From Stegostoma tigrinum (taxonomy: Eukaryota): a DNA stretch of 64,000 bases. The notes beneath the pieces were generated by a model. That model ran no database searches. It was not told where the DNA came from and saw only the letters and a program-made list of their open reading frames with translations. Positions 1 to 62,752 of this stretch are shown here, one piece after another; position 1 is the stretch's first letter; every line of letters starts with the position of its first letter. The stretch is from positions 32,896,630-32,960,629 of the forward strand of contig NC_081374.1 of the NCBI RefSeq assembly GCF_030684315.1, written 5' to 3'. The position numbers and the translations under genes are program-made.

Positions 1-2983
1 TCTGCAGCTACGACAGCAGCTGATACAGTCACAATGCAACTTCCCTTTTGAGACACAAAGTTTAACACATGCTGCCTGAGGATTATAAACAGGGATCCTT
101 TATTCTACTGGAATAGGTATTAATAGATAAGTCTATCTGAGAGCAACAAACTAACGGCAATAGATCTGTTCTTCAGGATACAGTTGTAGCACATAACGCC
201 AGACCCCTAATCAGTCAGATAATAGTTCAGTTGATGGAATGTCCACTGGAAGCCTCCTGTAGCTATGAGATGAAGATTACTTTGTCTCCAAGATTTAAAG
301 GGGAGCTCCCTTTCCTCACAGCCTGTCACTCTGATTTTGCCCAGATGTTCCAGCTAGGTCTACTGCAGCTATTTGGCCTACCCACTAGTATGTCCCAGTT
401 CACAGCTACTGTCAATGGCATTCATTTGTGCTATTTGTGACCCTGGCAATTCTGTACAAGATGCATCAATCTGGAACAGTGCTGTCACTCCTGGGTACTT
501 CTCCCTCTCTGTGTCTCTCACTGTGTCTCTATCTGAGGTTTCTCTGGTTCAGGGGTGCTGTCTGTTGAATGTATTATTTATCCAGCATGCATACATCCAC
601 AGTGGGAGTCTTCTGACTCACAAGGTCTGGGTTTTATGTTTTTGTCCCTTGTCACATGGTATCTAACTTGGCCCCTCAGCTTGTCAAAGGCTGTACTACA
701 CCCTGCAGGAAGACACCCAACGGGTCAGATTAGTACCTCATTTCTGTGCTGAACCCCACCATAGACACCTGCTGTTGAAGGCCCTGCTACACCTTTAAAA
801 GCTGCTGACTAGTTCCCACAATGCAGAAGCCTCTCATGCACCTGAATTTATCCCATGTGCCATTGTGCTCTTTATCTGTCCCTAATCCCCTCTGGAACAG
901 GGTCAGTCAAGACTGGCTGTTGTTTATGTCCTGGCCATGCCAGGGGGAACAATGAGCACTGTTGCCATTGCACTGAGATAGTGAGGCGCACTGCAATATG
1001 TCTGAACTTTGCGTATTTGGGGTCTGGCGAAGGTTTGGGAAGCAATAGGGGATTGGAAACTTGTGAGAGTGTTACAGCTGGATGGACCCTCCAATGGGCC
1101 TGGGGGCTAGTTAAATGGGGGCTCTATCACCCTTCCCCACCCCGGCCTTGTCCACCACAAGCCTACACAACTTACACAATCATCGGATGAGACCTGGGCA
1201 GAGGGAGTGGCAGACATTGAGCCGCCAGGCATGAATCTTTTTGCAAGTATAACTGTGATAGCGGTAGGGACAGGATGTTAGGTGCTTTCCAGGCTACCTT
1301 CTGGGTTTAACATACTCCATTCTCGGCCTTCAGCCCATCAGTGGGAAGCAGTAAATCCAGCCCATAATTTTGGCAGTGAACTCCTGCATGCGACCAAGTG
1401 AAGGCTGTGGTTAGCACGGTCTGGGAACAAAGGTCATTCCAATGAGCAAGAGGCACAAAACTGTCAGCTCCTGGCATTGCATTTATTCATGAATCTCGCA
1501 TTGCAATGACAGTGCCTGTATTTGGGGTTCATCCAATTTGACTGAGAATGACCTTGCAAGGATTTTTAATGTTTGATCAAGGCCCCAAAAACATCAATAT
1601 ATCGTAAGGTATAATTGCATTGCAGGTGATTCATGGTACGTTCGTCTTTCTCATTTTCAAATAAATAAATGACTTCTAACAGAAGCTCTTTCATAAAGAA
1701 AGTGGGTCCATTAAATGAAATAAAGGTGTCCTTATCCTCTAAAAGAGTACAACACTAATTAATGCTACTTTAAAAACCAGATGTGTTCAGTTCTTGAGGC
1801 AGTTGGTGTTCAGGAGTATTTTGCTGTTGTTCTCTGATTTCTAGCAGAGATGCGCAGGATGGAATTTCTATATAATCCATTATTGATGGCCAAATGAAGT
1901 TTGAATTTACATGGGAGTAGTAAATATAAAACGTAGGTTTTGTAAATAGATAACATGTTTATTGAATTACATCGTAATTCTGTAGTTTTCCGCATCATAA
2001 TTCAAAACACCTTTATAATGATAATGCTGTACAAAATTGAATCCCATTCATCAGAGAATTGAGTGTCACAAATCTCTTTGAGGTAAACTGATCTTCATTC
2101 AACATTTGAGCTCCTTGCAAATTTCACAAAATTCTCGGAGAACGTTTATGCAAATGTTACCATCTTCAACAGGAGTTTTGCAGAGTTCTATTCCACTTCT
2201 TTGAAGATCCGTTTCTGAGATATGTACTAAGGGTTGCCTTATGCTTTACTTGGCTTTTACATGCTTTGTGGGAGGTGGCTTCAAGAATTTCTGTTTGCCG
2301 TGTACTTTGGTTCTTTTATTACTTTTTAGGCAAACTTCCAGTGCAGCATGATTGTCTGCTGGGGGTTGGGAAGTGTAACATTGAATTAGATCAGTGAGAA
2401 GCAGACTTATATTGCAAAACATATACCAATTTTAATGCAATATAGCAAAATGGAAATCATGCACACAACTATTAAATTCCTTCTTTTAAATGTCTAAATG
2501 TAAAATTCAGTATCACATTCAGTAACTTGATGTAGGTTATGCTTTTCTTTCAGGAAATGTTATAATTATATGGCTAATAAAATTGTTGTGTTTTGGGATT
2601 GAGTTTTTAATTTTAAAGCAAAATGAAATGGGTCATTGCCCTGTTCAGAAGTTGGCTTGCGAGTGAGCCTGCTTTGATTGTTTGAGATTAAAATGGGGCT
2701 GTTGCAATCTGACAAGGAGAGGTCAAATGGCTTTCTTCTATTCCCTCTCCTCATTTGACTGCAATGGGTTGTTTTGTTTGAAAAGGATTACTTGCCAATT
2801 CAGTGAGTACTTAACTATTTACGCTGTGTGATCATGAAAGAACCAATAAGCAATTTTAAAACCAGATTTTCTTGACTTGAACAAAGAAAGAAGTCTACCA
2901 CACCCAGCACCTTCCCCTGCAACTGCAGGAAATGCTACACTTGCCCCCACACTTCCTCCCTCACCCCTATCCCAGGCCCCAAG

Positions 2984-3454
2984 ATGACATTCCACATTAA
3001 GCAGAGGTTCACCTGCACATCTGCCAATGTGGTATACTGCATCCACTGTACCCGGTGTGGCTTCCTCTACATTGGGGAAACCAAGCAGAGGCTTGGGGAC
3101 CGCTTTGCAGAACACCTCCGCTCAGTTCGCAACAAACAACTGCACCTCCCAGTCGCAAGCCATTTCCACTCCCCCTCCCATTCTCTAGATGACATGTCCA
3201 TCATGGGCCTCCTGCAGTGCCACAATGATGCCACCCGAAGGTTGCAGGAACAGCAACTCATATTCCGCCTGGGAACCCTGCAGCCTAATGGTATCAATGT
3301 GGACTTCACCAGTTTCAAAATCTCCCCTTCCCCCACCGCATCCCTAAACCAGCCCAGTTCGTCCCCTCCCCCAACTGCACCACACAACCAGCCCAGCTCT
3401 TCCCCTCCACCCACTGCATCCCAAAACCAGTCCAACCTGTCTCTGCCTCCCTAA
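2984..3454 (+). pseudogene. GIY-YIG endonuclease C-terminal part of the Penelope ORF (RT missing through 5' truncation)
   Basis: ORF track 156 aa with VVY...LYIGET motifs, conserved R and E, and a terminal GIN. The Met at 2984 is internal because the frame stays open upstream to about 2897. Confidence 0.88.
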
Positions 3455-3678
3455 CCTGTTCTTCCTCTCACCCATCTCTTCCTCCCACCCCAAGCCGCAC
3501 CCCCATCTACCTACTAACCTCATCCTACCTCCTTGTCCTGTCCGTCTTCCCTGGACTGACCTATCCCCTCCCTACCTCCACACCTATACTCTCTCCACCT
3601 ATCTTCTTTACTCTCCATCTTGGGTCCGCCTCCCCCTCTCTCCCTATTTATTCCAGAACCCTCACCCCATCCCCCTCT

Positions 3679-3706
3679 CTGATGAAGGGTCTAGGCCCGA
3701 AACGTC
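3679..3706 (+). ncRNA. Minimal hammerhead ribozyme-like core
   Basis: CTGATGA, extra A, stem II GGGT/CTAG/GCCC, GAAAC-GTC. Helix III is reduced to the palindrome ACGT and stem I is only about 2 bp. Confidence 0.65.
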
Positions 3707-5566
3707 AGCTTTTGTGCTCCTGAGATGCTGCTTGGCCTGCTGTGTTCATCCAGCCTCACATTTTATTATTGCTTTAGAAAGTGTCAGCTTGTCATGTGAC
3801 CTGCTTCCTCCAACTGTCCGGAATTAAGAAAAAGCCATTGCTCATATATTCCAAAGGTGGTTTAATTCCCTTTATGTCTAGAAGCTATCTTAGCCAAAGC
3901 CCCATTATCATGCAATTATTATTTAAAACCCGCTCTCCACGCCTCAAGTTCTTGCCCCAAATTTACCTTCTTAGTAAGATGGAAGATGCCAGTCCTACAC
4001 AATCCCTTGAAGTTATTGTCTTTGCATTTTGCAGATTGTCTCGATCGCATTGGGACTGGAATGTGAAATGCACAGAAATGCAAATTCTTTCATCACCTTA
4101 GCTGTCAGTTCAAATTATTGTCCCATGTCGTAAAGAGCCTGTGTTTTTAAAAATCCAATCCATATTCCACTCGGTGGATTAAAATCATTATTTGGTATAA
4201 AGCAGATCTTCATTGGAGAGCCAAGAGTGTGGTCCTGTGTTTGATTGGAAACAGAATACTGTATAATAAGAGTGGAAGATTTCAACATTACTGAAAATGT
4301 ATTAGGGATATTGGGTTGTAAACTCTTGTGCTTACAATTGTTCATTTATTCCGAGATATAAAAAAAAGAGTTGGGTTCACAGGGGTAACTAATTAGCACT
4401 TAGTTTGGATACAAAGCTCAAATGATTTGCAATGTTGTTGAAATGGTTTTTGAGACAGGAAGAATATCTAATATATCCTTAAGAACTCATAGAGACAGTT
4501 CGTCAGCTAGGGTATGATGGAGAAACAAGCACCTAAATGCTGAATATTTCTGTGGTTCACCGTGGAAAACTGCACATGCTGATATGTTATAATGGGCATG
4601 GAAGATTTGCTTAGTATTAGCTAGAGGAAGAAGTCTCCTGGAAAACTTTCATCATGAAAGAATGCTCTAGAATTAGAAGGAACCAAGCTGGGAAATGAAC
4701 TGATCATATGTAATCCCTGTAGTGCTAAGAATCATTATGGACTGTTTCTGGGAGAATTGGATATCGACTTTGAAGAAAATATAAAGCATACCTTCAAGGT
4801 TTCTTTTTGGTCTGCTGAAGTTAAGAACGGAAAGGTACTGTTCTGTGGTTTGAAGTAAAGCAACCTTAAAAAATAACATTTAATCAATAGTTTTTTTTTA
4901 CAGTTTGGTGTTACTACAAAATCTTCTGGAAACGTAAAACTTGTTGTGTCCTCCTTTCTGCCTAAACTGGAAATTTGTGTTTTGTTCTTTTTAAAAGCCT
5001 TGAGTCTCTGAGGATGGTCACAGTAAAGAAATCTTTTGTGCTTAATAAGATCAGAAAGCAATTTCAAAACCAATGCAATCACGAGAATGATTGAAATTGC
5101 ACAGACATTTGCATTGTTCCACCAATTTAAGTACATTACTTTCAGGTTGATGGAAGTTGGGTGCTGAAAGAACAGCAGTTAGGTGCTGAAAGTATAGTTG
5201 ATATAAGTTGACATGAGGAATGCTTAACAAGGGCACAATTACCAAGTCACTATCTAACCATTTAAAAATGCAGCCTGATGTTCCTGCTTGCTTACTGTAC
5301 ATCAGCATTATTGTCTACTTCATAGTGTGATTTAAAAGGTATTGATAATATATCGTGTGGGTTTGATATTAGGCTGTGCTGAATAGTGTTGTCTAACAAA
5401 TAAATAGTATTTAACAAGTTGCTTGGCTGATTAAGGCAGTGCATAATGTAAATCTCATTTTGCAGGTACATAATAAGTAGATAATTGCAGTTGCATACTT
5501 TAAATGCTGTCCCTTTGTACCTGCACCAAAGAACACTGATGTTTAGTTTTTGAAACAAAGATTATA

Positions 5567-5790: not shown

Positions 5791-5993
5791 GTATGACTAT
5801 CAAAACTAAATTCAAAGTTACATTCAGGACTACTCTTTAATGTTCTGTCATTGGGTACAATACTGCTCGACACAAGTTGAGTTCAGTGAGCCTTGTAACC
5901 TAGAAAACACCAGGCGCTTACAGCGGAATTGACTGCATTAATTTCTACTTTTATTCTCTAAAATATCAATATTGGCAATTCTTTGAAATATTT

Positions 5994-6350
5994 GGATGGC
6001 ACAGTCGCCCAGTGGTTAGCACTGCTGCCTCACTGCACCAGGGACCTGGGTTCAATTCCACCCTTGGGCGACTGTCTGTGTGGAGTTTGCACATTCTCCC
6101 CGTGTCTGTGTGGATTTCCTCTGGGTTGTCCAGATTCCTCCCACAGTCTAAAGATGTCCAGGTTAGGTGGATTGACCATGCAAAATTGCCCACAGTGTTC
6201 AGGTGTGTGCAGAAAATGTGGATTAGCCACAGGAAATGCAGGGTTAGATGTATAGAGTCACAGTGTGGGTCTGGGTGGGATTCTCTCTGGAGGGTTGGCA
6301 TGGGTTTGATGGGGGAATAGCCTGCTTCCATACTGTGGGGATTCTATGAT
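5994..6350 (+). mobile_element. HE1-type tRNA-derived V-SINE, near full length
   Basis: A-box-like CCCAGTGGTTAGCACTG, B box GGTTCAATTCC, core TGTGTGGAGTTTGCACATTCTCCCCGTGTCTG, and CR1-like tail CTTCCATACTGTGGGGATTCTATGA. Confidence 0.92.
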
Positions 6351-12320: not shown

Positions 12321-12445
12321 TTAAAAACCGAAAGAACTACGGATGTTGTAAATCAGAAACAAAAACAGAAGTTGCTGGAAACTCTCATCAGGTCTGGCAG
12401 CACCTGTGAAAGTATAAAGTCCGAGTTTATGTTTTGAGTCCAGTG
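12321..12445 (-). mobile_element. Penelope-like terminal fragment (family B)
   Basis: Homologous to 22395-22480 and 28362-28453 (GTTGCTGGAAA...CAGGTCTGGCAGCACCTGTGAA). Flanked by the degenerate direct repeat AACCTGTAGTA / AATCTGCAGTA. Confidence 0.7.
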
Positions 12446-15301: not shown

Positions 15302-15603
15302 TCATACAGTGTGGAAACAGGCCCTTTGGGCCAACAAGTCCATGCTGACACTCAGAGCAACCCACCCAGACCCATCCCCCTAATCTACACATCCCTGAAT
15401 ACTAGGGGCAATTTAGCATGGCCAATCCACCTAACCTGCACATCTTTGGACTGTGGGAGGAAACCTGACCACCTGGAGGAAACCCACACAGACACGGGGA
15501 GAATTTGCAAACTTCACATGGACAGTCGCCTGAGGGTGGAATTGAACCTGGGTCCCTGGCCCTGCTAGGCAGCAGTGCTAACCACTGAGCCGCTGTGCCA
15601 CCC
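15302..15603 (-). mobile_element. HE1-type V-SINE
   Basis: Reverse complement matches the copy at 5994-6350 (GGGTGGCACAGCGGCTCAGTGGTTAGCACTGCTGCC...). Confidence 0.92.
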
Positions 15604-16329
15604 TAAAGTTGGAGTTGGAGGCCAGGGAATTACTTTTAAAGCTGGGACTGAAAATAATCACAACAGTTTCTGAAAACTTGGTTGAAGGAAATTTCTGCTT
15701 GTCCAGAAACACAAACTGTGTGTGAGAAATACGATACTGTAAAGCAAAATTAGATGTTATCAGTTTATGGGTGTAACTTGAAATTATCTTTTTGTTGCTG
15801 ATGTTGAAGTTAACTTTTTAATGGCAAAGTTGTTCAGGAATAGCAAATAGATAAGAGCTAGGAAGTGACCGAAAATAGATCACTGGGGGCTTCAAAGGGA
15901 GCAGGGAGGGAATGGTGAGAGAGACAATTGTAAATGATTCCCTGGCTAAGTGTAATGAAACGACCAGTAGCAAGTGACAACTGTGAAGGATGGTGCTGAG
16001 GAGGGGAAGCCAAGCAGTTGTGCCTGGATCTCCTCCAGTAAGTGGTGGTCAGTCAGCAATAGATCCTCTTTAGGGGAAGGAGACCTCTTGCGAAGAAAGA
16101 CCAGACAGGCAGGCAAAGGTTTTGTCAACCTAATGTCAAACTATGAGCTTCATTCACTGTAAATACTTCCTTGTTTAGCCATAATCTCCCTTCATGTTTG
16201 TCATGATCTGATGCCAGTGGCAAATAATCCCTGCTTCACAATCTTTCGGTCTTCTATATATTTAAATCTCACCTGTACACTAGACTGACAAAATAAAAAG
16301 GAACAGGGTGAATGCTGTTGCATCCATTC

Positions 16330-17340
16330 AAAGGAGAACTTCTAAAGTTAAGGAGGATGAAGAGGAATAGTTTACCAAAGTCATAGCCATCTATGAGTTT
16401 GAGGGTGTCAAGCAAATACTGAGACTTAATACCTGTTTTGGTACAGAGGGTTCTGGGTATCCATACACATTCTCCAGGTAATAACACAAATGGAATTTTT
16501 GCATTTATTGCAAAAGAATAGTGTATAAAAGTAGGGAAATGTTGATGCAACTTCACATGGCATTAGTGAGACTGTGCCTGGAATATTGTGCGCAATTTAT
16601 GGGCCCCTTACATGAGGAGGGATATAGCTGAGTTGGAGGCAGTTCAGAGGAGGTTCACTAGAGTGATTACAGAGGAGATTCCAAAGATATGCAGGTTAGG
16701 TGGGTCGGCCATGCTAAATTGCCCACAGTGGTCCAGGGATGGGCCAGCCAGGTGGGCTAGCCATGGGAAATGCAGAGTTATAGGGATAGGGTAGGGGGGG
16801 TAGTTCTGGGTAGTATGCCATTTTGGAGGATTGGCACGGACTGTGTGCTGAATGGCCTGCTTTCACACTTTTGAGATGCTATGATTCTATGAAGCGGGGT
16901 TTGTTTTATGAAGAGACATTGAGCAGTTTAGGCTTGTACACTCTGGAGCTCAAAAAAAATGAGAGGAGATCTAATTGAAGCATAGCAGATGCTAAAGGAG
17001 ATTGAAAAAGTAGATATAGAAAGGATATTTCTTTGTGGGGAAATCTAGAACAAGTGGTCATAGTTTTAGGATAAGGGTTGGCAGATTTAAGAGATGAGGA
17101 GAAATTACTTCTCTCAAAGGATTATGGAATTGTGGGATTCGCTTACCCAGATTGCTGTGGATCCTGGGACGTTGAGTAAATTTAGGGAGGAGTTAGACAT
17201 AATTTTAGTTAGTAATGGGTTGAAGGTTAATGGAGTATGGGGTTGAGGTTGAGATGAGGTCACTTATGATCGTATCGAATGGTAGAGAAGTCTGGAGGGG
17301 CTGTATTGCAGATTCCTACTGCTTGTTCTTGTGTTCTTTC
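16330..17340 (+). mobile_element. Degenerate CR1 LINE 3' part (RT C-terminus to tail), interrupted by an HE1 SINE
   Basis: Peptide remnants LWAPYMRRDIAELEAVQRRFTR and RGDLIEA, NYFSQR-like DNA, and tail TTGTTCTTGTGTTCT. Confidence 0.85.
16678..16891 (+). mobile_element. 5'-truncated HE1-type SINE nested in CR1
   Basis: TCCAAAGATATGCAGGTTAGGTGG...GCCATGCTAAATTGCCC...GATGCTATGATTCTAT. The CR1 frame resumes right after it. Confidence 0.85.
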
Positions 17341-17913: not shown

Positions 17914-18840
17914 AGTCATAACAAGTCCTGGAAACAGACCTTTTGGTCCAACCAATCCATGCCAACCATGTTCCAAACTAAACTAGTTTCACCTGCCTGC
18001 GTTTGGCCCATATCCCTTGAAACCTTTCCATTCATGAACTTATCCAAATACCTTTTAAATGTCGTAACTGTACCTGCATCTACCACCTCCTCTGGCAGTT
18101 CATTCCACACATGAACCACTCTCTGTGCAAAATAACTTGCCCCTCAAAGGCCTGAGCACTGCAGGCAAGCATGCTAAATGTCTCCCTAACCATCCTGTCT
18201 ACCTGTAATGCAAATTTCAAAGAATTATATACCTGGAACTCTTGATCTGTCTGTTCTACAACACTACCTAGGGCCCCAAATTTAATTGTATAGGTCTTGT
18301 CCTTGTTTGTTTTACCAAAATGCAATACCTCACATTTATCCAAATTAAACACCAACTGCCACTACATAGTTGATCAAGATCTCTTTGTAATCTTGCAGAT
18401 GACACCAAAATTGATGGTATTGTGGACAGTGAAGAAGGTTATCTAAGATGGAGTATGATTTTGTAAACCTTTATTAAGGCTTATAGCATCATGAGGGACA
18501 TAGATCAGGTGAATTACAAGGGTCTTTTCCTTAGGGTGGGGGAGTTCAAAACTAGGGGGCATATTTTTAAAGTAAAAGGAGAAAGATTTAAAAAGGACAA
18601 TCTTTTTAGACAGAGGTTGGTTCGTGTGTGGAGTGAACTGCCTGAGAAAGTGTTGGAAGCAGCTACAGTTACAGCATTTAAAATATATTTGCATAAATAT
18701 ATGAATAGGAAACTTTTGCAGGGATATAGGCCAATTGTAGGCAGGTGAGACTAGTTTAGTTTGGGAATGTGGTCAGCATGGACGGGTTGGACCGAAAAGT
18801 CTGTTTTGATGATGTATGATTCTGACTCTTTACAACTCTA
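17914..18840. mobile_element. Head-to-head CR1 composite: - arm 17914-18393 and + arm 18394-18840, each internally deleted and each with a 3' tail
   Basis: The - arm encodes FNLDKCEVLHFGKTN and VWNELPEEVVDAGTVTTFKRYLD. The + arm encodes ADDTKIDGIVDSEEGY, then jumps to MRDIDQVNYKGLF...VWSELPEKV. Confidence 0.85.
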
Positions 18841-20124: not shown

Positions 20125-20600
20125 ATGTTCCCAAGCTAAACTAGTCCCACCTGCCTGCACTTGACCTATATCCCTCCCGATGTTCCTATTCATGTACACA
20201 TGCAAATGTGTTTTATACATCGTAACTATAGGTACATCCACCACTTTCTCTGGCAGTTCACTTCACAGACGAACCACTCTCTGCCTAAAAAAAAGTTTCC
20301 TTCCTGTCCATTTTTAACCCTTTCTCCTCTCACCTTAAACACATGCCCTCTAGTTTTGAACTTCCCCACCCGGAGGAAAAAACCCTTATAATTCACCTTA
20401 CCTGTGCCCCTCATGATGTTATAAGCCCCAATAAGGTTGATAAGATCATATTCAATCTTAGATAACCTTCTTCAATGTCCACTATATCACCAATTTTGGT
20501 GTGATCTGCAAAATTACAAAGAGATCTTGATCAAATGAGTCAATGTGCTGCGGAGTGGCAGATGCTGTTTAATTTTGGACAAATATAGATTTTGCATCTT
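20125..20600. mobile_element. Second, inverted and partial copy of the CR1 composite
   Basis: Same inversion junction (ATCTGCA|A[A/G]ATTACAAAGAGATCTTGATCAA) and same internal deletion junction as 17914-18840. Confidence 0.8.
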
Positions 20601-20949
20601 GCAGTCCTTAATCTCAATATTTGATGTATAATTACTTGGAAAATTGGTGGTAAAATAAAAGTTGTAGGATGAATAATTGTTTCTGTGACTTGAATATTTC
20701 AATTGTGGTATGGTCTGTACTATTTCACCTACCTATTATAATGTATTCAGTGACAATGCAAAATATCCACAATCTGATTCCACATGAGTTTATGCAGATC
20801 CAATGTCAGAAATGTAGACAGAAATGTGCATGTATTTTGTTCTTTCAAAAGTTGTATTTTAATATTGTTTTATAACTCTGCAGCTAGTAATCATTCTGTA
20901 CAGGGAATTGACAGAGATGTTTAATAATTACTTTGCATCCTCAGTATTT

Positions 20950-22394: not shown

Positions 22395-22632
22395 ACGAAA
22401 ACAAAATTGCTGGAAAGGCTCAGCAGGTCTGGCAGCACCTGTGAAGGCAAAAACCAGAGTTAACATTTCAGGTCCAGTGACCCTTCCTCAGAACAGTTCT
22501 GAGGAGGGGTCATTGAATCCAGAATGTTAACTGTTTTTGCCTTCACAGATGCTGCCAGACCTGCTTAGCTTTTCCAGCAACTTTGTTTATTTTTCATGAT
22601 TTGCAGCACCTGCAGTTCCTTTGGTTTTTAAC
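22395..22632. mobile_element. Palindromic Penelope-like family B insertion with 13-bp TSD and a hammerhead-like core on each strand
   Basis: Inverted arms 22399-22494 and 22496-22588. TSD TGATGCCCATTGA (22382-22394) / TGATGTCCATTGA (22633-22645). Confidence 0.88.
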
Positions 22633-28361: not shown

Positions 28362-28453
28362 CAAACTGAAAGAACTGCAGACGCTGTAAATCGGGAACAA
28401 AAACTGAAAGTGTTGAAAAAGCTCAGCAGGTCTGGCAGCATCTGTGAAGAAAA
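28362..28453 (-). mobile_element. Penelope-like terminal fragment (family B)
   Basis: AAAGAACTGCAGACGCTGTAAATC...GCTCAGCAGGTCTGGCAGCATCTGTGAAGAAAA matches 12.3 kb and 22.4 kb. Confidence 0.75.
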
Positions 28454-34869: not shown

Positions 34870-35612
34870 CGCCAAGATGGTAATGCCATTGCACTGATCT
34901 TAGTGGTTCAAGCTAATGCTCTGGGAGTACTGGTTCAATCCCACCACAACAAGTATTGGAATTTACAGTCAATTAGCAAAATCTGGTTAAGTCTCAGAAG
35001 TATTGAAAATTGAAGCTTTCATTATTAAAGCACACTTGATTGACTTGTGATTTTTTTGGAAAAGAAATCTGTCATTCTTACGTAAAACCGACCTACGTCT
35101 GACTCCAGATTGACAGTAGGATAGTTAACTCTTAAATTATCTCTGAAATGGCCCAGCAGGCCATTCAGTTCAAGGCAATTAGAGATGGGCACCAAATGCT
35201 GGTCATGCCAGTGAGACTGGGTTACGTGGTGGCACAGTGGTTAGCACTGCTGCCGCTCAGCACCAGGGACTTGGGTTTGATTCCACCTACTAGGTTGCTG
35301 TCTGTATGGAGTTTGCACATTCTCCCCAAGTCTGCATCTCTTTCCTTCGGCTGCTCCAATTTCCACCCACAGTCCAAAGATGTGCAGGCTAGATAGATTG
35401 GCTGAGATAAATTACCTGCATTGTCCACAGACAGGTTAGATGGTGTAGGTTAGTTGGATTAGCCATTGGATATGCAGGGTTACAGAGCTAGTGTAGGGGT
35501 GTAGGTTTGGGTGCGTTGCTCTTCAGAGCCTATCGAGTCCACATTGATCCTAAATGCCCTGTTACCATGCTGTAGGGATTCTATGATTCCACATCCTATG
35601 AATGAACAATTT
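34870..35612 (+). mobile_element. tRNA-SINE family C whose 3' tail is split by an HE1 insertion
   Basis: Head GGTTCAATCCCACCAC, core ...GACTCCAGA...AACTCTTAA...CTCTGAAATGGCC, tail GGCAATTAGAGATGGGCACCAAATGCTGG...|HE1|...CCACATCCTATGAATGAA. Confidence 0.75.
35219..35589 (+). mobile_element. HE1-type V-SINE
   Basis: GTGGTGGCACAGTGGTTAGCACTGCTGCC...GGAGTTTGCACATTCTCCCC...CTGTAGGGATTCTATGATTC. Confidence 0.9.
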
Positions 35613-49919: not shown

Positions 49920-50252
49920 CATCAAATTCCTACAATGTGGAAGCAGGTCACTCAGCCCATTGAGTCTACACTGACGTTCCAAAGAGCAATCCCCCTACCA
50001 ATCCCCCTACCCTAGCCCAGTAACTCTGCATCTCCCATGGCTAATCCATCTAGCCTGCACAATCTTGGATGCTACAGAGTAATTTAGCATGGCCAATCCA
50101 CCTAACGTGCACATCTTTGGATTGTGGGAGGAGGTGGGAACGCCTGCAGGAATCCCACGTGGACACAGGAAGAATGTACAAATTCCGCACTGACAGTCAG
50201 CCAAGGGTGTGCTGTGAGGCAGCAGTGCTCACCACTGAGCCACTATTGCCAC
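49920..50252 (-). mobile_element. HE1-type V-SINE
   Basis: AATTTAGCATGGCCAATCCACCTAACGTGCACATCTTTGG...GAGGCAGCAGTGCTCACCACTGAGCCAC. Confidence 0.9.
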
Positions 50253-50893
50253 CTTTTCATATCTTTATTCAGAATAAATTATTTTATCTGTCGTCATTAA
50301 TCATGAACTGCAATTTTCACAGATTACTATGATAATGAAGGGGAAGACTATTTTATAGTGTAATTAAAGGGAAAGAAACATTACAAGGTTCCTCTTTATA
50401 AGCAACAATGCTCTATGTGCTCCATTGTGGAAATTCAAGAAGTACAACTAGGTATAAAATCTCATGCTGGGAAATCCCATGAGGTCAAAAAAATATGGAT
50501 AGCTATCATTTGAAGATCATAAGACTTTGTTGCAGTTGTGGTTTTAAAAAGCTACTTTGAATAGTTTGCATTTTATAGGCTTTGCTTGGGAAGCTTCCCT
50601 GCAACACAGCTCTGACCCTGACACACTATCTGGTGTCTGATTTACTATGTTAAATTGTCATGTAAGTTGAATTCATTCTATCGCTGTTCCATAACAGGGT
50701 TGACTCCTTTTCACATTGTGATTCTTCTTGCTTCCTGCTAAAAGCAAAATCTGATTTGTTTTTCCAATGTCAAATATTCTCTAGACTTCGTACTTCAGTA
50801 GCAATGTTTTATCTCACTATTGTTTTACGGAGGTTTATTCCTTCTTTGTCGCCCTTTTAATTCTAGTTTTGCAACATTACCAGTGCTGCAACA

Positions 50894-51247
50894 GGTGAGG
50901 TGATGGCCTAGTGGTATTATCACTAGACTAACTATCCAGAGAACCAGATAATGTTCTGGGGACCTGGGTTTGAATCCGACTGTGGCAGGTTGTAGAATTT
51001 GAATTCAATAAATGTCTGGAATTAATCATCTAACGATGACTGTGAATCCACTGTTGATTGTTGCACAAGCCCATGTGGTTCACTAATGTCCTTAGGGAAG
51101 GAAACTGCCATCCTAACCTGGTCTGACTGACATGTGACTCCAGGCCCACAGCAATGTGGCTAACTCTCAACTGTCCTCTGGGCAATTAGGGATGGGCAAT
51201 AAATGCTACTTGGCCCTGATGCCCTCATCCCATGATTAAAAAAAAAA
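50894..51247 (+). mobile_element. Full-length tRNA-SINE family C
   Basis: A box TGGCCTAGTGG (50904), B box GGTTTGAATCC (50967), core CACTAATGTCCTTAGGGAAGGAAACTGCC, tail GGGCAATTAGGGATGGGCAATAAATGC...CATCCCATGATT followed by poly-A. Confidence 0.9.
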
Positions 51248-52742
51248 TCTGTTTTAAAATGATTCTATTGCCTTTGATTTCCCCAGACTGACTCTCTGTC
51301 TCCTTATGTTCTGTTGCTAGACTATTAATGCGTATTGTGAGCTATGTGTACATTTTTAAAACATTTTTCGTCTTTTTTGACCAGACATTTTTATCTTTAT
51401 GCATAGATTTCCGATGCCTGTTCACTTCTTTCTCATTGAACTTTTAGCAGGAATGTTCTTATGAATTCTCTCAGGAACTGAATCTGTAACGGCCGAGTGT
51501 GACTAACGTCTAGCCTACACTTGTTTCATTGTTTCGCTTACCTAGTTCTGAAGGAAAAGGCCTTGCTATTAATTGCTATTTCTCCATTGTTGATCTTTGC
51601 ACAAACTTAGACTGCTGCATCTACCAACTAGCTGTAAGAATAGTGAAGACTTTTTAAGTTGTAAGTGTTCAGCTCTGCTGCTGGGTGTCCAAGGATTCTC
51701 CCCATAGCCTAGTACCACAAAGGTAACAATAATGCTGTTTACTATCATTGTATAGCTCAATAGATTCCAGCCCTCAACACAGGTCACAATTGATGTTTGT
51801 GTGTGTTGCAATACCCAACCATTACCAGCGTTCCATTAGGTTGTCTTGCTGCCACCATTCTCTTTACTGGGTCTAAGGATCTCCTCAACTCACAGTAATA
51901 GTCAAAACAAAAAGAATAAGTCTTCAAAGGCCCTTGCCTAAAACAAGATGTGCTTTATTATGTAATGACTATTTTGATCTGACGGTCACAGATAATCGTG
52001 AACAATCTAGGCAACGTAAAACCTTATTTTTGGTTCGCAAGTTTTTTTCCATCTTTCTGTTCTCATTTTTCTCAGTAAGCTGTTCATAAGAAATGTTTGA
52101 ATACAAATCAATCTGATTTCCTTTGACTTGATGGCTGTACTGAGATTTCTGAATCCTACTGCAGCTTTAAGTACCTAAAAAGTGTATTTCTTCTGCCGTG
52201 TATCAATTTAAAGGGAGCAACAGAATGCCATCTTCATAGCCTTATCAATTCAGAATCATATTTCTTTATTGCAAAGCCATATAACATGTTACTTATCCAA
52301 AAGCTATGCAGCAGTGGGGGTAAATATTGTTTCAAGTAATTTGCTGACACCATTCCTCCTTAGTTTTTGTTTTGCTTTGGGAATATTCAATGATTACTGT
52401 TAGAAGTTACACCACAGATATCTAAAGAGACACTGTTCTTGGATAAAGAGATTTCTTGCATGGTAGCAATAAATACAACTACAGTACTAGTGCTCATGAA
52501 GCCATTGAGTGTAGAAGTAATTACTGCTTATCATTAAATTATCTTAGTGCAACAGATGTTTGTAACATGTATTAAAGGCACTGATTTCAGATCCAGCAAA
52601 TTCCATGCGGGAAACCTAGTGAAGTGCACTTTCTCTTGTTGAAAACCTGCAGGTTCTGCATCTCCAACAGGTGCATTTCCACTTTGCACATTGAGTTTGC
52701 TTTAAATTTAAGAAAATTACACCCTATTTTATTTAAATGCTG

Positions 52743-53087
52743 TTTTTTTACAATTCATTTGCGGGCTGAGGGCATCACAGTTTAGGCAGCCTTTATTGCC
52801 CATCCCTAATTGTCCAGAGGGCAGTTAAGAATCAGCCACATTTCTGTGAATCTGAAGTCACATGTAGGCTAGACCAGATAAAGATGGCAGTTTCCTTCCC
52901 TAAAGGTCATTAGTGAACCAGATGGACTTTTCCACCAATCAACAATGGATTCACGGTCATCATTTAGATTCTTAATTTCAGATATTTATTGAATTCACAT
53001 TCCATATCTGCCATGGTAGGATTCGAACCTGGGTCCCCATAATGTTATCGTGGTCCAGCAATAATACCGCTCGGCCATTGCTTCCCC
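52743..53087 (-). mobile_element. Near full-length tRNA-SINE family C, inverted relative to 50894-51247
   Basis: TTTATTGCCCATCCCTAATTGTCCAGAGGGCAGTTAAGA...TTCCTTCCCTAAAGGTCATTAGTGAACCAGATGG...GGATTCGAACCTGGGTCCCCA. Confidence 0.9.
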
Positions 53088-53975: not shown

Positions 53976-56532
53976 TGTGCACCTGCCCCGAGTTTGTGGG
54001 ATTTTCTCAATGTGCAGATCAGACTCTGATGTCTCAGGGCTCAATCTGCTATTTTAATGTGAGAGTTGAGGAAGGTAGCAATAATACCTTCCCACCAGGC
54101 TTACTCTAGTTGATAAAGAGGCCAAAAGCCCCAAACGCTGAGGCTAAAAATTAAGTGAAACATTTTGTATTCCTCCTGTTTCTGTCTTGGACTTCCCTGA
54201 CTGCAACTCCACTCTTGAATCACTTTGTCCTATTCATGGTTTAGTCTTTTAGGACAGCCTTTTATCATCTGTTTGTGACCAGCAGGCAGCTGATTCCCAC
54301 TCCCTTTTTGTTCTTGAAGTCAGCAAGCAGGATGTTAATGAAAAGCAGCTGTTAAAGTGAAGCCAAGTTCTAGCAACAGATCTTAGACAGGCCACCCACT
54401 CAGTTCGCTGTGCTCCTATCTGAGTGTTAAGATTAAAACCATTGACATATTTTGTACAAAACATCATTTGACCCTTGTCTTTGCAAATATAAGCCCACTC
54501 ATTTATAAACTCATTTTTGACTCTCTTCAAACTAATCCTACTTTCTACATTAGATCCATAAGTTTTAAAAAATATTCTTCAAGTAATCTATTCGAAACAT
54601 TGCTGGTATTGAATGACATTTGGAAATTGTGGGCATTCTGCATGATCTTTTGCCCATCCATGTATTAACAGTTGACAAATCTAGCATTTTTTTATTTAAA
54701 AAATTGAAATCAAGGCTATTTTTACGTAACATCTGAAGCCAACTGGAATCGTATGTCTGAAAAATTAGTCACAGTGAAGTAGGACTTCCAAGTTTTTCAC
54801 CTGTTTTGTCTCTGCAGTTGACTGTGATCTACAGTGGTAAAACAGGTCAGGGTTATGTTAAAATTCAGCTTCCACAATTGATAGAGACAGAACTTCCAAA
54901 TGAGACTTTTGAAAGGGTATATGTCAAAGGCAGGTGTTCTTTCTTAAAATAGATTCAATTCTGTTTTAGTTTATTTACAAACAGGATAAACGGGCAGAAA
55001 ATCTGCGCTCAGTTTTGTTCTGCCTGTACTTCCTTTATGGCTCCAGCATAACTGCTGTTTCAAAATGGTTTTGTCAGTGAGAATTTCCTCCAGTTGACGC
55101 CTTCAGAAAATGAGGAATACCGTAGATAAATCCGTCCAAGAAATACTGTAATGCCAACTGCTGACATTTCTTCCTTTCTGCAGACAGCAATGAAATTATC
55201 TCACTTTAGGAATTGTTGTATTGTGAAGCCTCCTTATACCAAAGCAAGCTGCACCAGTTGGGCATCATTGGTGTCTCTATAACATTACGCCGCAGGAAGA
55301 ATATGGCATTGAGATCGAGGATCAGTCATGATCAGCCCTGGTACATTACAATTTGTGTGACTCTACAAAAGGAGGCACATTCGAAGACTGTCAAAAGGCT
55401 GTGTTAAGTTGTGCCTCTGCTGACTGTAGGTCCTGGCGCATGTACCTGGCAAAGAGCGTGGGAACCTGTCTTGTCTCAGTATGGGTCAGCAGAGATGCAG
55501 GTGCAGAATTGTGCCATCTGCCATCTGAATGGCTGCCATGTAGCATAAGCCCATCCCATCAAGCAATGGTTATGGTCAGCTTAGCCTAAAACTTGGCTGT
55601 AGATCCTTGTGGACATACGCAGCACTGACCCCCATGAAAGGGGCTGTGGAGTGCCCCAAGAAAATGTTTCTTGCAGCCAATGTTAGATCAATCCATTTTA
55701 GCAGTGTCCTATAAAGGGCCATGTGCTAAAATATTTTGCTTATTCCCTTGACCTTTTTTCCTGCTTCGCATATTGGTTTTTAATTCTGTGTTCAATTTGT
55801 CAAAAGTGACTTTCATTAATCAAGCACTATGTAGATATTCAAATATCTGAATTTTTGCTTACTTGGCTTGAACTGTTCCCATTCCCTTCAGGTTTGGCAC
55901 ACATGTAGTATTGTTCATCCGTCATCATGCCTTTCTGTACTTGAGATTTGAACCATTTCCCAATCACTTACAACTGACCTATTTCCATGGTTGAGTGTGA
56001 ATGTAGAATGTAATACATCAGTAAGCAAGTCATTGGTGTTCCATATTGAGAAAAGGCTTAAAAGTGCAATATTGAACTGTTACAGTTACTCATGCAAGAT
56101 TAATGCTGCTAAAGATTTAGCACCCTTCAACTTTTATGGTACCAAGCAATTACAAGGCCAATTATATAGCAGCCAGCCTGTATTCACTTTATAATGAGAC
56201 ATTTTAATACATGGCATTATTATTTATTGCAGAAGCATTATTTTTCAGTTCATAACTCTACACTGTGTATGTTTAATTTACGATAATTATCCCATGATGA
56301 CCAAATTGGGTATAGACAGGCTTCTCCAATATTTGCTGCATTGTAAGAAATGTATGTGTCCTGTGGACAGAATTGTTCATAGTTAAATGTTACTTGGCCA
56401 ACTCAGTGAAACAACTCATTTTGTGTATGTCATGCTCTGGAGGTTTTCTTGCATTTCAGATCAAATAAAATTTTGCACCAGAACTTAATGGTAGTGTAAT
56501 TGACTCTCTGTGGAGAGATCATTGGGATAGCT

Positions 56533-56624
56533 CTCTGATGAAGGGTCTAGGCCCGAAACGTCAGCTTTTGTGCTCCTGAGATGCTGCTTGGCCTGCTCTG
56601 TTCATCCAGCTCCTCACTTTGTTT
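56533..56624 (+). mobile_element. 92-bp Penelope family A terminal insertion (hammerhead module only) with perfect 14-bp TSD
   Basis: TSD TCATTGGGATAGCT at 56519-56532 and 56625-56638. The first 78 nt differ from 3677-3754 at one position. Confidence 0.95.
56535..56562 (+). ncRNA. Minimal hammerhead ribozyme-like core
   Basis: CTGATGAAGGGTCTAGGCCCGAAACGTC, identical to 3679-3706. Confidence 0.65.
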
Positions 56625-57104
56625 TCATTGGGATAGCTGATATCTTTGTCAAAGATGTGGCCACTAGTTAAGGATTGGGAAGAAGCTGAGAAATCAGCAA
56701 AAAATGTTGCGACGAGGTGGGGAGGGTTAAGTGGCTCCTCTCTGACTGCATCTCTTTTCACCACAACAATTTTCCTTCCCCCTTTTTTTTGTTTGTTTGT
56801 TTGTTTGCTAATCAGTGAATGTTTACCTGTTTGCAAGTCATGGCTACAAGAGGCACACATTGACCGAGAAGCAGTTAACTATATGCTCTTTCTGGGCCAG
56901 AGAGAGTGATATCTTTCGTAATTGTAATTATTGATGTCACTTAAGGTGTTGAGCGTGAAGCTTATCTTTCTATGGTGTGTTTAAAAGACAAATGTGCAAA
57001 TTCAGCAATTCTTAAAAATCATGTGGAAGTTACGAGGGAACTGCCAATTGCACAGAGTGACTGACATAGCGATGCACACAGATCTCTGTTACAGTGATTT
57101 GCAA

Positions 57105-58439: not shown

Positions 58440-59515
58440 TGAATTCATTCTTTCATGGAATATGAGTGTTTGCAGTAGTTGTCCATTTCGCCTTGCCCTT
58501 GAACAAAGCGATTTTACGAAAGTGTTTCAGGATCAAACAGAGGTAGTAGAAACTGCCAGTGCTGGAGTGCGAGTTAACAAGGTGTAGAGCTGAATGAACA
58601 CAGCAGGCCACGCAGCACCAGAGGAGCAGGAAAGCTGACATTTCGGTCCTGCGCCCTCCTTCAGAAATGTGGGAGGGAGAAGGGAGTTGGAAAATAAATA
58701 GAGAGAAGGGGAGGCGATGATAGATGATGGATAGAAGAGTGAGTAGGTGGGAGGGAAGATGGACAGGTCAAGGAGCGGGGATGAGATGAGCTGGTCTCGG
58801 GGGTGGGGAGATTTTGAAGCTTGTAAAGCTTCCTTGACCTGTCAATCTTTTTTCTCCCACCTATCCACTCCTCCCACCTCACTGACCAACCCCCACTCCC
58901 ACTTCCTACCTACTAGCCTCATCTCTACCTCCTTAACTGTCCGTCTTCCCTCCCACTACCAGCCACTCCCTCCTCATTGACTAACCTCCACCCCAACTCC
59001 TTACCTACACTTGCCTGTTATGGCTTCATCTCCGCCTCCTTGACCTGTCCGTCTTCTCTCCACCTATCTGCTCCTCTATCCATTTTCTATCATCGGCTCC
59101 CCTGCCCTCTATTTATTTCAGAGCCCCCTCCCCCATTTCTGAAGAAGGGCCCAGACCCAGAACGTCAGCTTTCCTGCTCCTCTGACGCTGCCTGGCCTGC
59201 TGTGTTCATCCAGCTCAACACCTCATTATCTCAGAATCAAGCTCATTGCTGGAGTCACATGTAGGATGGCCAGACCAGATGGGGATATGTTTCATTCCCT
59301 AAAGGACGTCTGTAAAAATTCCAATTGATTTACTACAATTGGTAGTTTCATGGTCTTAATTACTGCAAATTGGTTCTTATTCACACAGAATTATTAACTG
59401 TATTTTGAGTTCTACCAGATGCCCAGCTGGGATCTGAAATAGCGCTACCTAAACAATAGCTTCAGTCTCTAAATTGCTCAGTGAGTGATGTTACCACTGT
59501 GTCACCATCTCCCCT
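58440..59515 (-). mobile_element. tRNA-SINE family C interrupted by a Penelope insertion
   Basis: Tail ATTCATTCTTTCATGGAATATGAGTG (58443) to GAGGTAGTAGA, resuming at GAATCAAGCTCATTGCTGGAGTCACATGTAGG...CCCTAAAGGACG...GTTACCACTGTGTCACCATCTCCC. Confidence 0.7.
58551..59233. mobile_element. Inverted pair of Penelope family A 3' regions (- 58551-58825, + 58830-59233)
   Basis: Both arms carry the pyrimidine tract and terminal module seen at 3450-3770. Degenerate cores lie at 58637-58664 (-) and 59139-59166 (+). Confidence 0.85.
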
Positions 59516-59538: not shown

Positions 59539-59866
59539 TCATAGAATCTCTACAGTGTGGAAACAGGCTCTTCAGCCCAACAACTGATCCTCCACACTGA
59601 TCCTTGGAGCATCCCACCCAGAACTATCCTCCTAAAACCCAACTAAGCTACACATCCTTGAACACTCTGGGCAATTTAGTATGGCCAATCTACCTTGCCT
59701 ACACATCTTTGGACTGTGGGAGGAAACCAGAGCACCTGGAGGAAAGCCATACAGACATGGGGAGAATGTGCAGACTCCACACAGACAGTCGCCTGAGGGT
59801 GGAATTGAACTCAGGTCCCTAGCGCTGTGGGACAATAGCGCTAACTGCTGAGCTACCGTGCCACCC
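59539..59866 (-). mobile_element. HE1-type V-SINE
   Basis: TCATAGAATCTCTACAGTGTGGAAACAGG...GGGAGAATGTGCAGACTCCACACAGACAGTCGCC...CCGTGCCACCC. Confidence 0.92.
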
Positions 59867-60159
59867 AAATTATTAACTACCTTGATTTGATGTTCAATGT
59901 CAGGGATGTCTGAAGTCTGCACAAGAGAAGGGAATGCAAGACTGTTAAGTCAGGAAGGTTGAGAAGATGCTTAAGTGGAGCATGGGCTGGTTGGGCCACA
60001 TGGTTTCTTTGTGAGCTGTACATCCAGTGTAAACCTTTGTGTGGGGCCAAGGCGATTCGTTTCCAACTATCACAACTAATTTCATTTGTGTGACTTGAGT
60101 CTCCAGCCAGTGCAGAGGTTTTCCAGTGATTTTTGTTTCATTTATGTGATTAATTGTCA

Positions 60160-60550: not shown

Positions 60551-62457
60551 TGCCTACCTTCTGTTCCACTCTGGCTCCTTGATGCTGCTTTTGGTTAAAT
60601 CTTACATTGCTGTCAGGGTTGTCCTCTCAATTTCACCTTGAATTCCACTGTTTTGTTCATGTTTGGTTGGACCAAGGTTGCAATGTGATCTAGAGCAAGT
60701 TGTCCTGTGAGAACTGAGATTTTATTTTTATTTCAGAACTTAATGGTGGACTTTACACACAAACTGCAATGTATTATGAGCTGCCTTTGTTTTCCTAAAA
60801 TTGTTTCTCGTTCTAGAATTGTGTAGTACTTTTCTTCACCTCATACCTTTTTACCATCAGGTTTGCTCCAGCACTGAAACATCATTCTTTGTACTTCTGA
60901 AATATCATCCATTCAGAGCCCAAAGGTGATGCTTGTGGCACATGAGCATTTTAAAAATCTGGATATCTTGCAGTTTTTGTAGAATGTTTGCTATACAATT
61001 TATTTGTCCTTCTATTCTTTATTGTGTCAAATTTTAGCTTCAAAGTCATCACAAGGTGGTGACGGTATTACTGACGGTAACACACAATCTTAAACACTCA
61101 GCCCACATCTAACATCTGCTATACCAAGCATAGCATTTTATCCCAAAGGATGACTATTCCATGTCACAAACTTGGACCAAGCTTCTTTGATAGCATTCTA
61201 TATATTAGCCATACAATCAACTTAATACAGTAGCAGAAGGTCAACCTGACTTTAACAAACTAACAACAATTTATTTTAGTTCACCACCAAAAGTGAGACA
61301 CTTGCAAGAAATTTAGGAATACATGCTAGCAAATTTAATGGAATTCATTCAAGTGCAATTAAGTACTCATTTAACAGAATTGTTGAAAGCTATTTTCCTC
61401 TGGGGATGTCTGACCTACTGCGATATTGAACGAGAAAGGATTTTGACAGATTTTCTCAACTGAAAGACAAATTAAAACTAGGCATCATTATCCAATATCC
61501 TGTACATGTTTAGGTACCTTTCATTGTACAGCTATCATGTAAATGCTACACGCCCCATATTACATTCTTTTTTTAAGAGGTCAGTCTGTCGTTAAGTTCA
61601 TTAGCTACTGCAATCAGTACTTGCGAATAATTTCAGACAGAAAGTGGTAGAATGAAGAACAGCATTTAGACATTAGTTAAGTTATTTTTAATTCACTTCA
61701 GTAATTTGATAATCATTCACTTTGCAGGTAGGATCTTTTAATCATGTAGGAAAATGAACAGTGTAACTTCACATTGGACATCATCACAATAAATTTTATT
61801 GAAACCGATTTAATGATTAATTGAATCCAATGTTTTAGGGAGGTGACAGGTGCTTGTAGTGTGCAGGGAGCTAGGTAATGAGAACTGCCTTGAGATCTGG
61901 CTGAATATAAGGGCCAGAACTGATGTAAATGTTTTGAGTCTGTGTTTTTCAGCCTGTAAGGTGGCTAGGTCTTTAGCACCAGATCACAGCTGAGGAGTGA
62001 TATTGCAAAAATGGGGAAGGGGTGGTGGTGGTTGGATGCTGATGTGGTTTGATTGGGGGTAGAGGTGGATAACTCAGCGCAGTGAGGAAGGACCATGGAA
62101 AGATTAGGGGAGTTATAGATAGAGTCAGGCTTTCATTGTGAAGAGTGAAGATAGAGGCCATGGCCATGTTGAATTAAAATCAACATTATTTATGCTAGAG
62201 GCTGATTAGGGATGAGGTTTCTCATTTTTCAACTGATCTTCTACTCACCCTGCTAGGTTACACGTCTCATCACCTCAACTTCATTCAGCCAAAGTTTTGA
62301 AAACAAGCCAGTGGAATTTTGCCCTCCCTTCAGTTGGTGAGAGAAGTAGTCAGGAGAGGAAATAATTGAATGAGTTGGTGCTGGGTAGAGATTTTTCACC
62401 ATGACACCAATTAAGTTCTAGGACAGACTGCATGCACTGTGACTCAATCACCGGAAT

Positions 62458-62752
62458 GGGTGGCACAGTGGCTAAGTGGTTAGCACTGCTACATCACAGC
62501 ACCAGGGACCTGGTGTTTCTTTCAAGCCTTGGGTGATTGTATGGAGTTTGCACATTTTCCCTTCATCTGTGTGGGTTTCCTCTGGGTGCTGTGGTTTCCT
62601 CCCACAGTCCAATGATATGTTGAGTAGGTGGATTAGCCTGGGGATAGGGTAAGAGGAGGTGGGTTTGGCTGGGATGCTGTTCGGAGGATCGGTGCAGACT
62701 TGATGGGCTGAATAGCCTGCTTTGCACTGTAAGGATTCTCTGGTTCTGTGAT
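62458..62752 (+). mobile_element. HE1-type V-SINE (internally deleted)
   Basis: GGGTGGCACAGTGGCTAAGTGGTTAGCACTGCT...GGAGTTTGCACATTTTCCC...CACTGTAAGGATTCT. Confidence 0.88.

Follow-up and report, generated by a model that had tools for sequence, protein, structure and literature searches.

A short hammerhead-bearing insertion in Stegostoma tigrinum and the 5' boundary of copies of a Penelope-like end repeat

The window analysed in this study, a stretch of 64,000 nucleotides from contig NC_081374.1 of Stegostoma tigrinum, contains a 92-bp hammerhead-bearing insertion. This insertion is probably a copy of the end repeat of an autonomous Penelope-like element (PLE). Reverse transcription (RT) would have begun inside the element RNA, about 95 nt short of its 5' end, and would have run off that end, a predicted RNA polymerase II start at position -4. 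In this best explanation, the hammerhead was likely carried along by virtue of its position at the front of the RNA and did not set the boundary; its cut site may be the starting point of a minority of copies. By itself, the insert is probably a dead fragment, of a class already known. The short copies to which it belongs together form a very large natural record of poorly understood Penelope-like copying; from them the RNA start is predicted with single-base precision, and strand transfer and hammerhead cleavage in vivo become open to direct tests. Moreover, short hammerhead copies of this kind can be mistaken for SINEs or retrozymes.

The insertion and its parent element

Positions in the element are numbered from the first C of CTGATGA (hammerhead C3, window position 56535) as 0, which places the predicted cut between +27 and +28. 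The features of the window and the members of a third family are given in Table 1.

Table 1. Features of the element families, with positions in the window
Feature	Position	Strand	Remarks
5'-truncated long parent copy	2896..3770	+	Cys-rich linker and GIY-YIG end of the ORF (E 2e-4, just under the Pfam cut-off); pyrimidine-rich 3' UTR; hammerhead at 3679
TATA-like word TATTTAT	3645..3651	+	lies 30 nt upstream of 3675 (-4), where transcription is inferred to start
Left target-site duplication (14 bp)	56519..56532	+	last 2 nt also match element -4/-3 (microhomology)
Short copy of the element end repeat	56533..56624	+	element -2 to +89; without the 35-nt tail and without the upstream TATA-like box
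Right target-site duplication	56625..56638	+	begins with letters similar to element +90..+95
Minimal type I hammerhead motif	56533..56564	+	from sequence, pair counts and the descriptor in PMC4209133
Hammerhead CUGAUGA	56535-56541	+
Hammerhead extra A	56542	+
Hammerhead helix II, 4 bp	56543-56554	+
Hammerhead GAAACGUC	56555-56562	+	palindromic ACGU; predicted cut 56562/56563
Hammerhead helix I, 2 bp	56533-34 with 56563-64	+
Older head-to-head pair, family 1	58571..59232	.	longer arms
Head-to-head pair, family 2	22399..22588	.	arms start at -5/-4 and end at +132/+97
Other copies of family 2	~12321-12445, 28363-28453
Family 3 (third hammerhead family)			loci L165, L192, L251, L128, L296-L325; longer helix II, purine-rich UTR, mostly long copies

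An earlier note, made from the letters of the window, had described the insert as a recent target-primed insertion, essentially just a hammerhead module, which starts 2 nt before CTGATGA between perfect 14-bp target-site duplications (TSDs) and is identical at 77/78 positions to the 3' end of a GIY-YIG element at 3677. The insert and its duplication are exact: TCATTGGGATAGCT stands at both 56519-56532 and 56625-56638, and the match has no outward extension. A TSD search with right flanks swapped among 95 solo copies gave 0/95, so the duplication is not a product of chance. The literal boundary is correct as described, but the true start lies anywhere from -4 to -2, because the left duplication ends in CT, which matches element -4/-3 as well. 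The likeness of the right duplication to +90..+95 is possibly a trace of primer-template pairing at the RT start. The hammerhead motif is present, but it makes up only about 31 of the 92 nt, and the remainder reaches the +89/+91 end site of the element. Similarly, the 77/78 match (3677-3754) is exact, but the closest relatives are copies of a sister subtype with 98-99% identity, and the genome matches at this level include several long copies reaching the ORF. The 1-2 differences from the closest copies fit a recent insertion, and its description as target-primed and Penelope-like was right. In an empty-site look-up, the left junction was found in contigs of two samples with the right flank uncovered, and no empty-site joint occurred among the matches listed.

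The presence of a minimal type I hammerhead with palindromic helix III and an extra nucleotide was borne out, since the conserved core and the G10.1-C11.1 pair of helix II are present. Metazoan PLE hammerheads (PMC4209133) share with this motif the conserved core, the extra nucleotide before G10.1, the G10.1-C11.1 pair and the palindromic helix III (15.2/16.2), and they too are mostly single copies from truncated PLEs; their helix I usually has 4-5 bp (2 in D. virilis), whereas here helix I has 2 bp and helix II 4 bp. Among 469 copies of the family of the insert (family 1), N7 varies by subtype while the other core letters hold, and helix II is paired in 439-457. Helix I consists of 2 Watson-Crick pairs only, with a third pair in 30/469, which is below the usual 4-5 bp. 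Both of these pairs show compensatory changes across families 2 and 3, in which the helix has 3-4 bp, and this supports a real but short helix I. For the insert monomer, the predicted fold (-24.0 kcal/mol) hides the core, compared with -3.5 kcal/mol for the hammerhead fold, and an Rfam scan at E<=5 returned no hammerhead model and no match at all.

The parent is an RT/GIY-YIG PLE, likely of the Neptune clade. In L108, the ORF contains parts matching RVT_1 (E 8e-4) and GIY-YIG (E 1e-3), both under the Pfam cut-offs and with motifs visible in the translation. In L108, L063 and L087, a single frame with a few breaks spans RT, linker and GIY-YIG; no intact ORF was recovered. The arrangement is that of PLEs, a single ORF with RT and C-terminal GIY-YIG, and two Cys lie inside the GIY-YIG motif. 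In addition, the linker before GIY-YIG carries a Zn-finger-like C-x-C-x2-C-x2-C; such a Cys motif in the RT-EN linker is presented in the text of PMC8557442 as a Neptune feature common to Nematis. In partial tandems, of which 900 exact read-through matches were counted, the 3' module runs on through the tail and reaches the start of the ORF, which indicates the pLTR arrangement of PLEs. In most of 15 partial tandems compared, the two repeats differ by 1-4 nt. Strict LTR-like identity of both repeats was considered and rejected, as L124 and L128 each carry repeats of different subtypes, which also argues against a single-template rule.

Several further arrangements were observed in this family. 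Arrays of a 50-bp minisatellite occur in L067, L074, L083, L084, L092, L104, L108 and L112 (contig C1, 2.1-3.9 Mb). The unit corresponds to about +40..+89 of the 3' module of a sister subtype, without the hammerhead, and ends at the short RT start site; several arrays follow the pyrimidine-rich UTR and look as if synthesis had been reiterated. Mini-elements of 250-600 bp (L124, L126, L128, L136, L141, L149, L150 and others of L121-L150) begin with the 5' module and the initial portion of the ORF, then jump to the 3' UTR and close with a second module; their break points differ, so they are probably independent template jumps. The pyrimidine-rich 3' UTR (L108 7629-7775; window 3510-3656) contains TACTAAC, similar to a branch point, and a long tract devoid of AG that closes with CAG at about -24. 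These features recall the pLTR introns of other PLEs, and no spliced copies were seen among the sampled copies. A splice acceptor at about -24 was rejected as the 5' boundary, with stops in -30..-21 in only 1/121.

Start and end points of the copies

Copies of family 1 were sampled by a 3' anchor (+45..+75), and loci that had been selected because they resembled the insert or had special junctions were left out. Removal of 17 copies without context and 128 tandem units (mostly of the 50-bp minisatellite) from 532 unique copies left 387, mostly from the first 4.2 Mb of one contig, and 24 copies elsewhere show the same shape. In 10-nt bins from +40 down, 5' stops were found in 20/387, 24/367, 20/343 and 27/323 copies, followed by 76/296 (0..+9), 95/220 (-10..-1), 4/125, 1/121, 4/120 and 5/116, with the mode at -4. 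A plot of 5' ends had been proposed in the earlier note, with a sharp peak at or just before CTGATGA as the telling outcome and uniformly scattered truncation as the opposite one; the peak was obtained. Of the copies reaching +9, 197/338 stop within -10..+9, compared with 6/141 in the next 20 nt upstream and 57/395 in the other flanking window (Fisher p about 1e-32 and 1e-36). An unselected 200 kb (61 copies after removing 5 tandem and 1 at the edge) repeats the peak, with 12/42 and 14/30, then 1/16 and 0/15. The peak is present in solo copies and in each subtype; stops at -10..-1 number 26/97 in the youngest subtype versus 52/83 in that of the insert.

Exact genome-wide counts were consistent with this distribution. 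A 33-mer of family 1 has 123,617 matches, falling to 108,791, 87,427 and 56,905 when the pattern is extended to +10, 0 and -10, that is, by 12%, 20% and 35% per step with mutation included. Between -4 and -14 the count declines from 71,001 to 52,101; the range upstream of -14 rests on the sampled loci. No RNA sequence was among the carriers listed. With the 12% step taken as a ceiling for the background, roughly 20,000 young copies are estimated to stop in -10..-1.

The 3' ends cluster at two sites, about +91 and about +127 (+124..+131). The 5' peak is common to both classes (38 short-ended and 23 tailed solo copies), and the boundary is therefore a fixed position and not a fixed length. TSDs of 9-17 bp were found in 37/95 solo copies; one 30-bp match was a repeat artefact.

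Inverted copies are frequent, and 183/387 sampled copies adjoin one. Among pairs within 135 bp, 74/80 join an arm ending at about +91 to an arm ending at about +127. This one-of-each rule holds in 80/86 under looser pairing (two arms counted twice), in 10/15 loosely paired cases of the unselected set and in 13/16 pairs of family 2. Furthermore, 51/73 pairs lie inside one TSD of 11-19 bp, their arms are more alike than random arms, and only 5/68 scored pairs mix subtypes. A tail at one end only is known qualitatively from the descriptions in PMC8557442 and PMC3846280. We infer that priming on each nicked strand uses one of the two sites, and that the two cDNAs stop close to a common 5' boundary, so that the two RT start sites known in vitro would be used one per arm; the insert would be the one-armed case of a head-to-head insertion.

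The sequence upstream of the peak was compared with the TATA-to-start spacing of 30 nt and the initiator consensus of RNA polymerase II promoters. In family 1, a TATA-like word is present at -34 in 135/149 UTR-bearing copies of the subtype of the 2896..3770 copy, and at -34 or -35 in these and in 26/36 of a second subtype. No TATA-like word occurs in -330..-46 of the family 1 UTR; the copies derive from one sequence and count as a single observation. TATTTAT departs from the TATA consensus, and matches to a pyrimidine-rich initiator are cheap. A G precedes the start in 14/29 solo peak copies versus 14/37 in the control. In the subtype with the TATA-like word 1 nt further up, C stands at -5 in 27/56 versus 15/32, without a 1-nt shift of the start. 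Transcription starts inside the pLTR are described for D. virilis Penelope, with a TATA-less internal promoter, and for a Chlamys element (PMC2377424, PMC8557442), and TATA plus Inr-like motifs are noted in a rotifer pLTR. On balance, a transcription start 30 nt downstream of a TATA-like box accounts for the 5' peak better than does a SINE- or retrozyme-like unit or a stall.

Two further families were found. Family 2 is older, with a GIY-YIG about 50% identical to that of family 1, and its hammerhead has a 4-bp helix I and a GUU cut triplet. It has 158 copies in about 1.7 Mb, mostly short and about 82% identical to the references. The references begin at -5, so that sharing of upstream sequence, and not the histogram, served as the test: 86 copies reach the core, 29 of them are inverted, and 46/57 of the others share no upstream sequence. 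In the 11 copies that do share it, TCAGTT at -6..-1 resembles an initiator, and a TATA-like box lies at about -35. The two landmarks come apart in family 3, where the TATA-like box, conserved in 23/29 long copies, lies at -48, further from the hammerhead. For matches required to cover -7 onward or to adjoin such matches, 0/39 start at the hammerhead edge (-10..-1). The shortest arms start at -12, -16 and -17 (3/39 near TATA+30), and by eye two further insertions start at -16..-19; other starts lie at -25, -27, -28 and -37, with no strong peak.

Explanations of the 5' boundary

In the preferred explanation, transcription by RNA polymerase II is predicted to begin at -4, 4 nt ahead of the hammerhead core. 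A staggered GIY-YIG nick would prime synthesis, RT would begin at about +91 near the RNA 5' end and run off the transcription start, and the cDNA end would be joined to the target by 2-3 nt of microhomology. According to the in vitro work on the anole Poseidon element PAc, as given in the text of PMC11167929, RT initiates internally near the RNA 5' end, downstream of the hammerhead, at two sites bounding the tail; both strands are nicked and extended, cleavage by the hammerhead is not needed for insertion, and the enzyme requires ORF-side sequence. In these respects the present copies are alike, the last apart: short copies would be dead on arrival, since they contain neither the upstream TATA box nor the sequence on the ORF side on which the anole enzyme depended, and the insert copy is probably dead and not propagating. 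PAc differs in being a Poseidon element with the ORF start in stem II, while here the element is likely Neptune with the ORF start after the tail, and the PAc text (PMC11167929) mentions neither a genomic 5'-end peak nor a one-of-each rule for inverted pairs.

A stronger form of the same idea is tentative. Here RT would always start near the RNA 5' end, at +91 or +127 depending on the strand, copy to a capped -4 and have to jump to the 3' repeat for a long copy. Failed jumps would leave solo inserts or head-to-head pairs, and a second jump would rebuild the TATA-bearing pLTR. In LTR elements, minus-strand strong-stop DNA is likewise a short cDNA primed near the RNA 5' end, which ends at the transcription start in the terminal repeat. 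That DNA is tRNA-primed, whereas here nicked target DNA would be the primer and the product would be integrated directly, and the counterpart of transfer to the 3' repeat is putative. Against the preferred explanation, when 30 read-through copies were viewed by eye, 10 kept UTR upstream of the 5' hammerhead and only 1 started at -4, so that either some templates extend further or a jump is needed. For rebuilding of the pLTR, PMC2377424 sees no obvious mechanism.

Trimming of the RNA is unlikely as the source of the boundary. It supposes that nucleases cut the unstructured pyrimidine-rich UTR back to a protein-bound hammerhead and that RT runs off the trimmed end. The peak does coincide in families 1 and 2 with the 5' strand of helix I, protein assists the anole hammerhead according to the text of PMC11167929, and the counts of G before the start do not establish a cap-derived G. 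However, trimming leaves the TATA-like word 30 nt upstream in three families unexplained, and family 3 has none of its 39 starts at the helix I edge.

A stall of RT at the hammerhead, or at a long predicted stem from 0 to +76, was the second idea of the earlier note and is improbable. The predicted MFE stem begins at 0, and stops already rise over 0..+9; however, RT, moving 3' to 5', meets the structure first at +76 or +29, where stops amount to 5-8% per bin, and at the peak it has already copied the whole hammerhead, which makes a stall implausible. The long stem was rejected as a structure: its fold is no better than shuffles (z -0.27), it shows no covariation, and a subtype change at +4 breaks it without compensation (A-A in 53/469). 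Moreover, family 3, with its longer helix II, shows no stop at the hammerhead edge.

The first idea of the earlier note, an active SINE- or retrozyme-like unit, here of about 95-130 nt and propagating from its own master copies, is no more probable than a stall. In its favour, a very large number of copies have one start in common, short copies make up most of family 2, and bioRxiv 10.64898/2026.07.22.740005 reports retrozymes derived from PLEs in vertebrates, one of them a cartilaginous fish. Against this, every subtype holds both short and long copies, the closest relatives of the insert include ORF-bearing ones, and the short copies have no TATA box. RNA polymerase III units follow rules on A and B boxes and TTTT; in this sequence TTTT stands at +31..+34, no A or B boxes were seen, there is no A-tail, and the 3' end has two alternatives rather than one fixed site. 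A SINE fits poorly on these grounds and for want of an Rfam match. Head-to-tail retrozyme arrays were rejected, as the one junction form searched occurs 20 times genome-wide and only 2/20 are true tandems.

It is very unlikely that hammerhead self-cleavage makes the RNA 5' end even for a minority class, and the insert is excluded from such a class, as the cut lies 30 nt downstream of its start and of the main peak. At +28, the base that follows GUC, 15 copies start, whereas the other positions of +15..+42 have a mean of 2.5; of 14 such copies in a separate scoring, 3 are not inverted. This minor peak may be a trace of cleavage and is confounded, for the palindrome AGCT starts at +28 and makes head-to-head joins more likely (at 3 loci the join is symmetric). 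In addition, the excess was noticed after the fact, and no anole RNA-seq reads ended at the cut site in the data described in the text of PMC11167929. Finally, ordinary random 5' truncation without a preferred site, which would suit the scattered starts elsewhere (5-8% per bin), is hardly credible and is already refuted in the sample by the counts inside and beside the peak.

Known systems and other features of the window

The copies resemble EN+ PLEs, as characterised in PMC8557442 and PMC3846280, in RT with C-terminal GIY-YIG, partial tandems, head-to-head inversions, an optional tail of 30-40 nt at one end, TSDs of 9-19 bp and solo pLTR-like copies. In those accounts, 5' truncation is variable and inversions arise by self-priming, whereas here, of the sampled copies that extend to the hammerhead, about half end inside a 20-nt stretch whose position is TATA-linked. 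Non-LTR retrozymes, in the descriptions of PMC7229834 and bioRxiv 10.64898/2026.07.22.740005, are similarly short, non-coding, hammerhead-bearing and pLTR-related. They differ in forming head-to-tail tandems cut once per unit; here copies are solo or head-to-head, and the cut site is not the bound. No description of a class of short PLE copies bounded by a transcription start was found in the literature covered, with most subscription papers and Repbase/Dfam outside its scope, and Fig. S2 of PMC11167929, on where genomic insertions end, may bear on the matter.

Just 30 bp left of the insert (window 56445-56496), an acceptor-like T-rich tract with CAG is followed by 30 open bases and GT; by its sequence this could be a small host exon or chance. 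The search for a host gene in 104 of the 368 stop-to-stop frames of the window gave 0 Pfam matches. The window also harbors an unclassified dispersed family of 200-300 bp with 70-85% identity (5990-6350, 15305-15606, 16680-16886, 35229-35522, 50003-50253, 59551-59870 and 62457-62638), as well as unclassified inverted or dispersed repeat pairs with about 80% identity at 17932-18806, 20125-20601 and 50943-53054.
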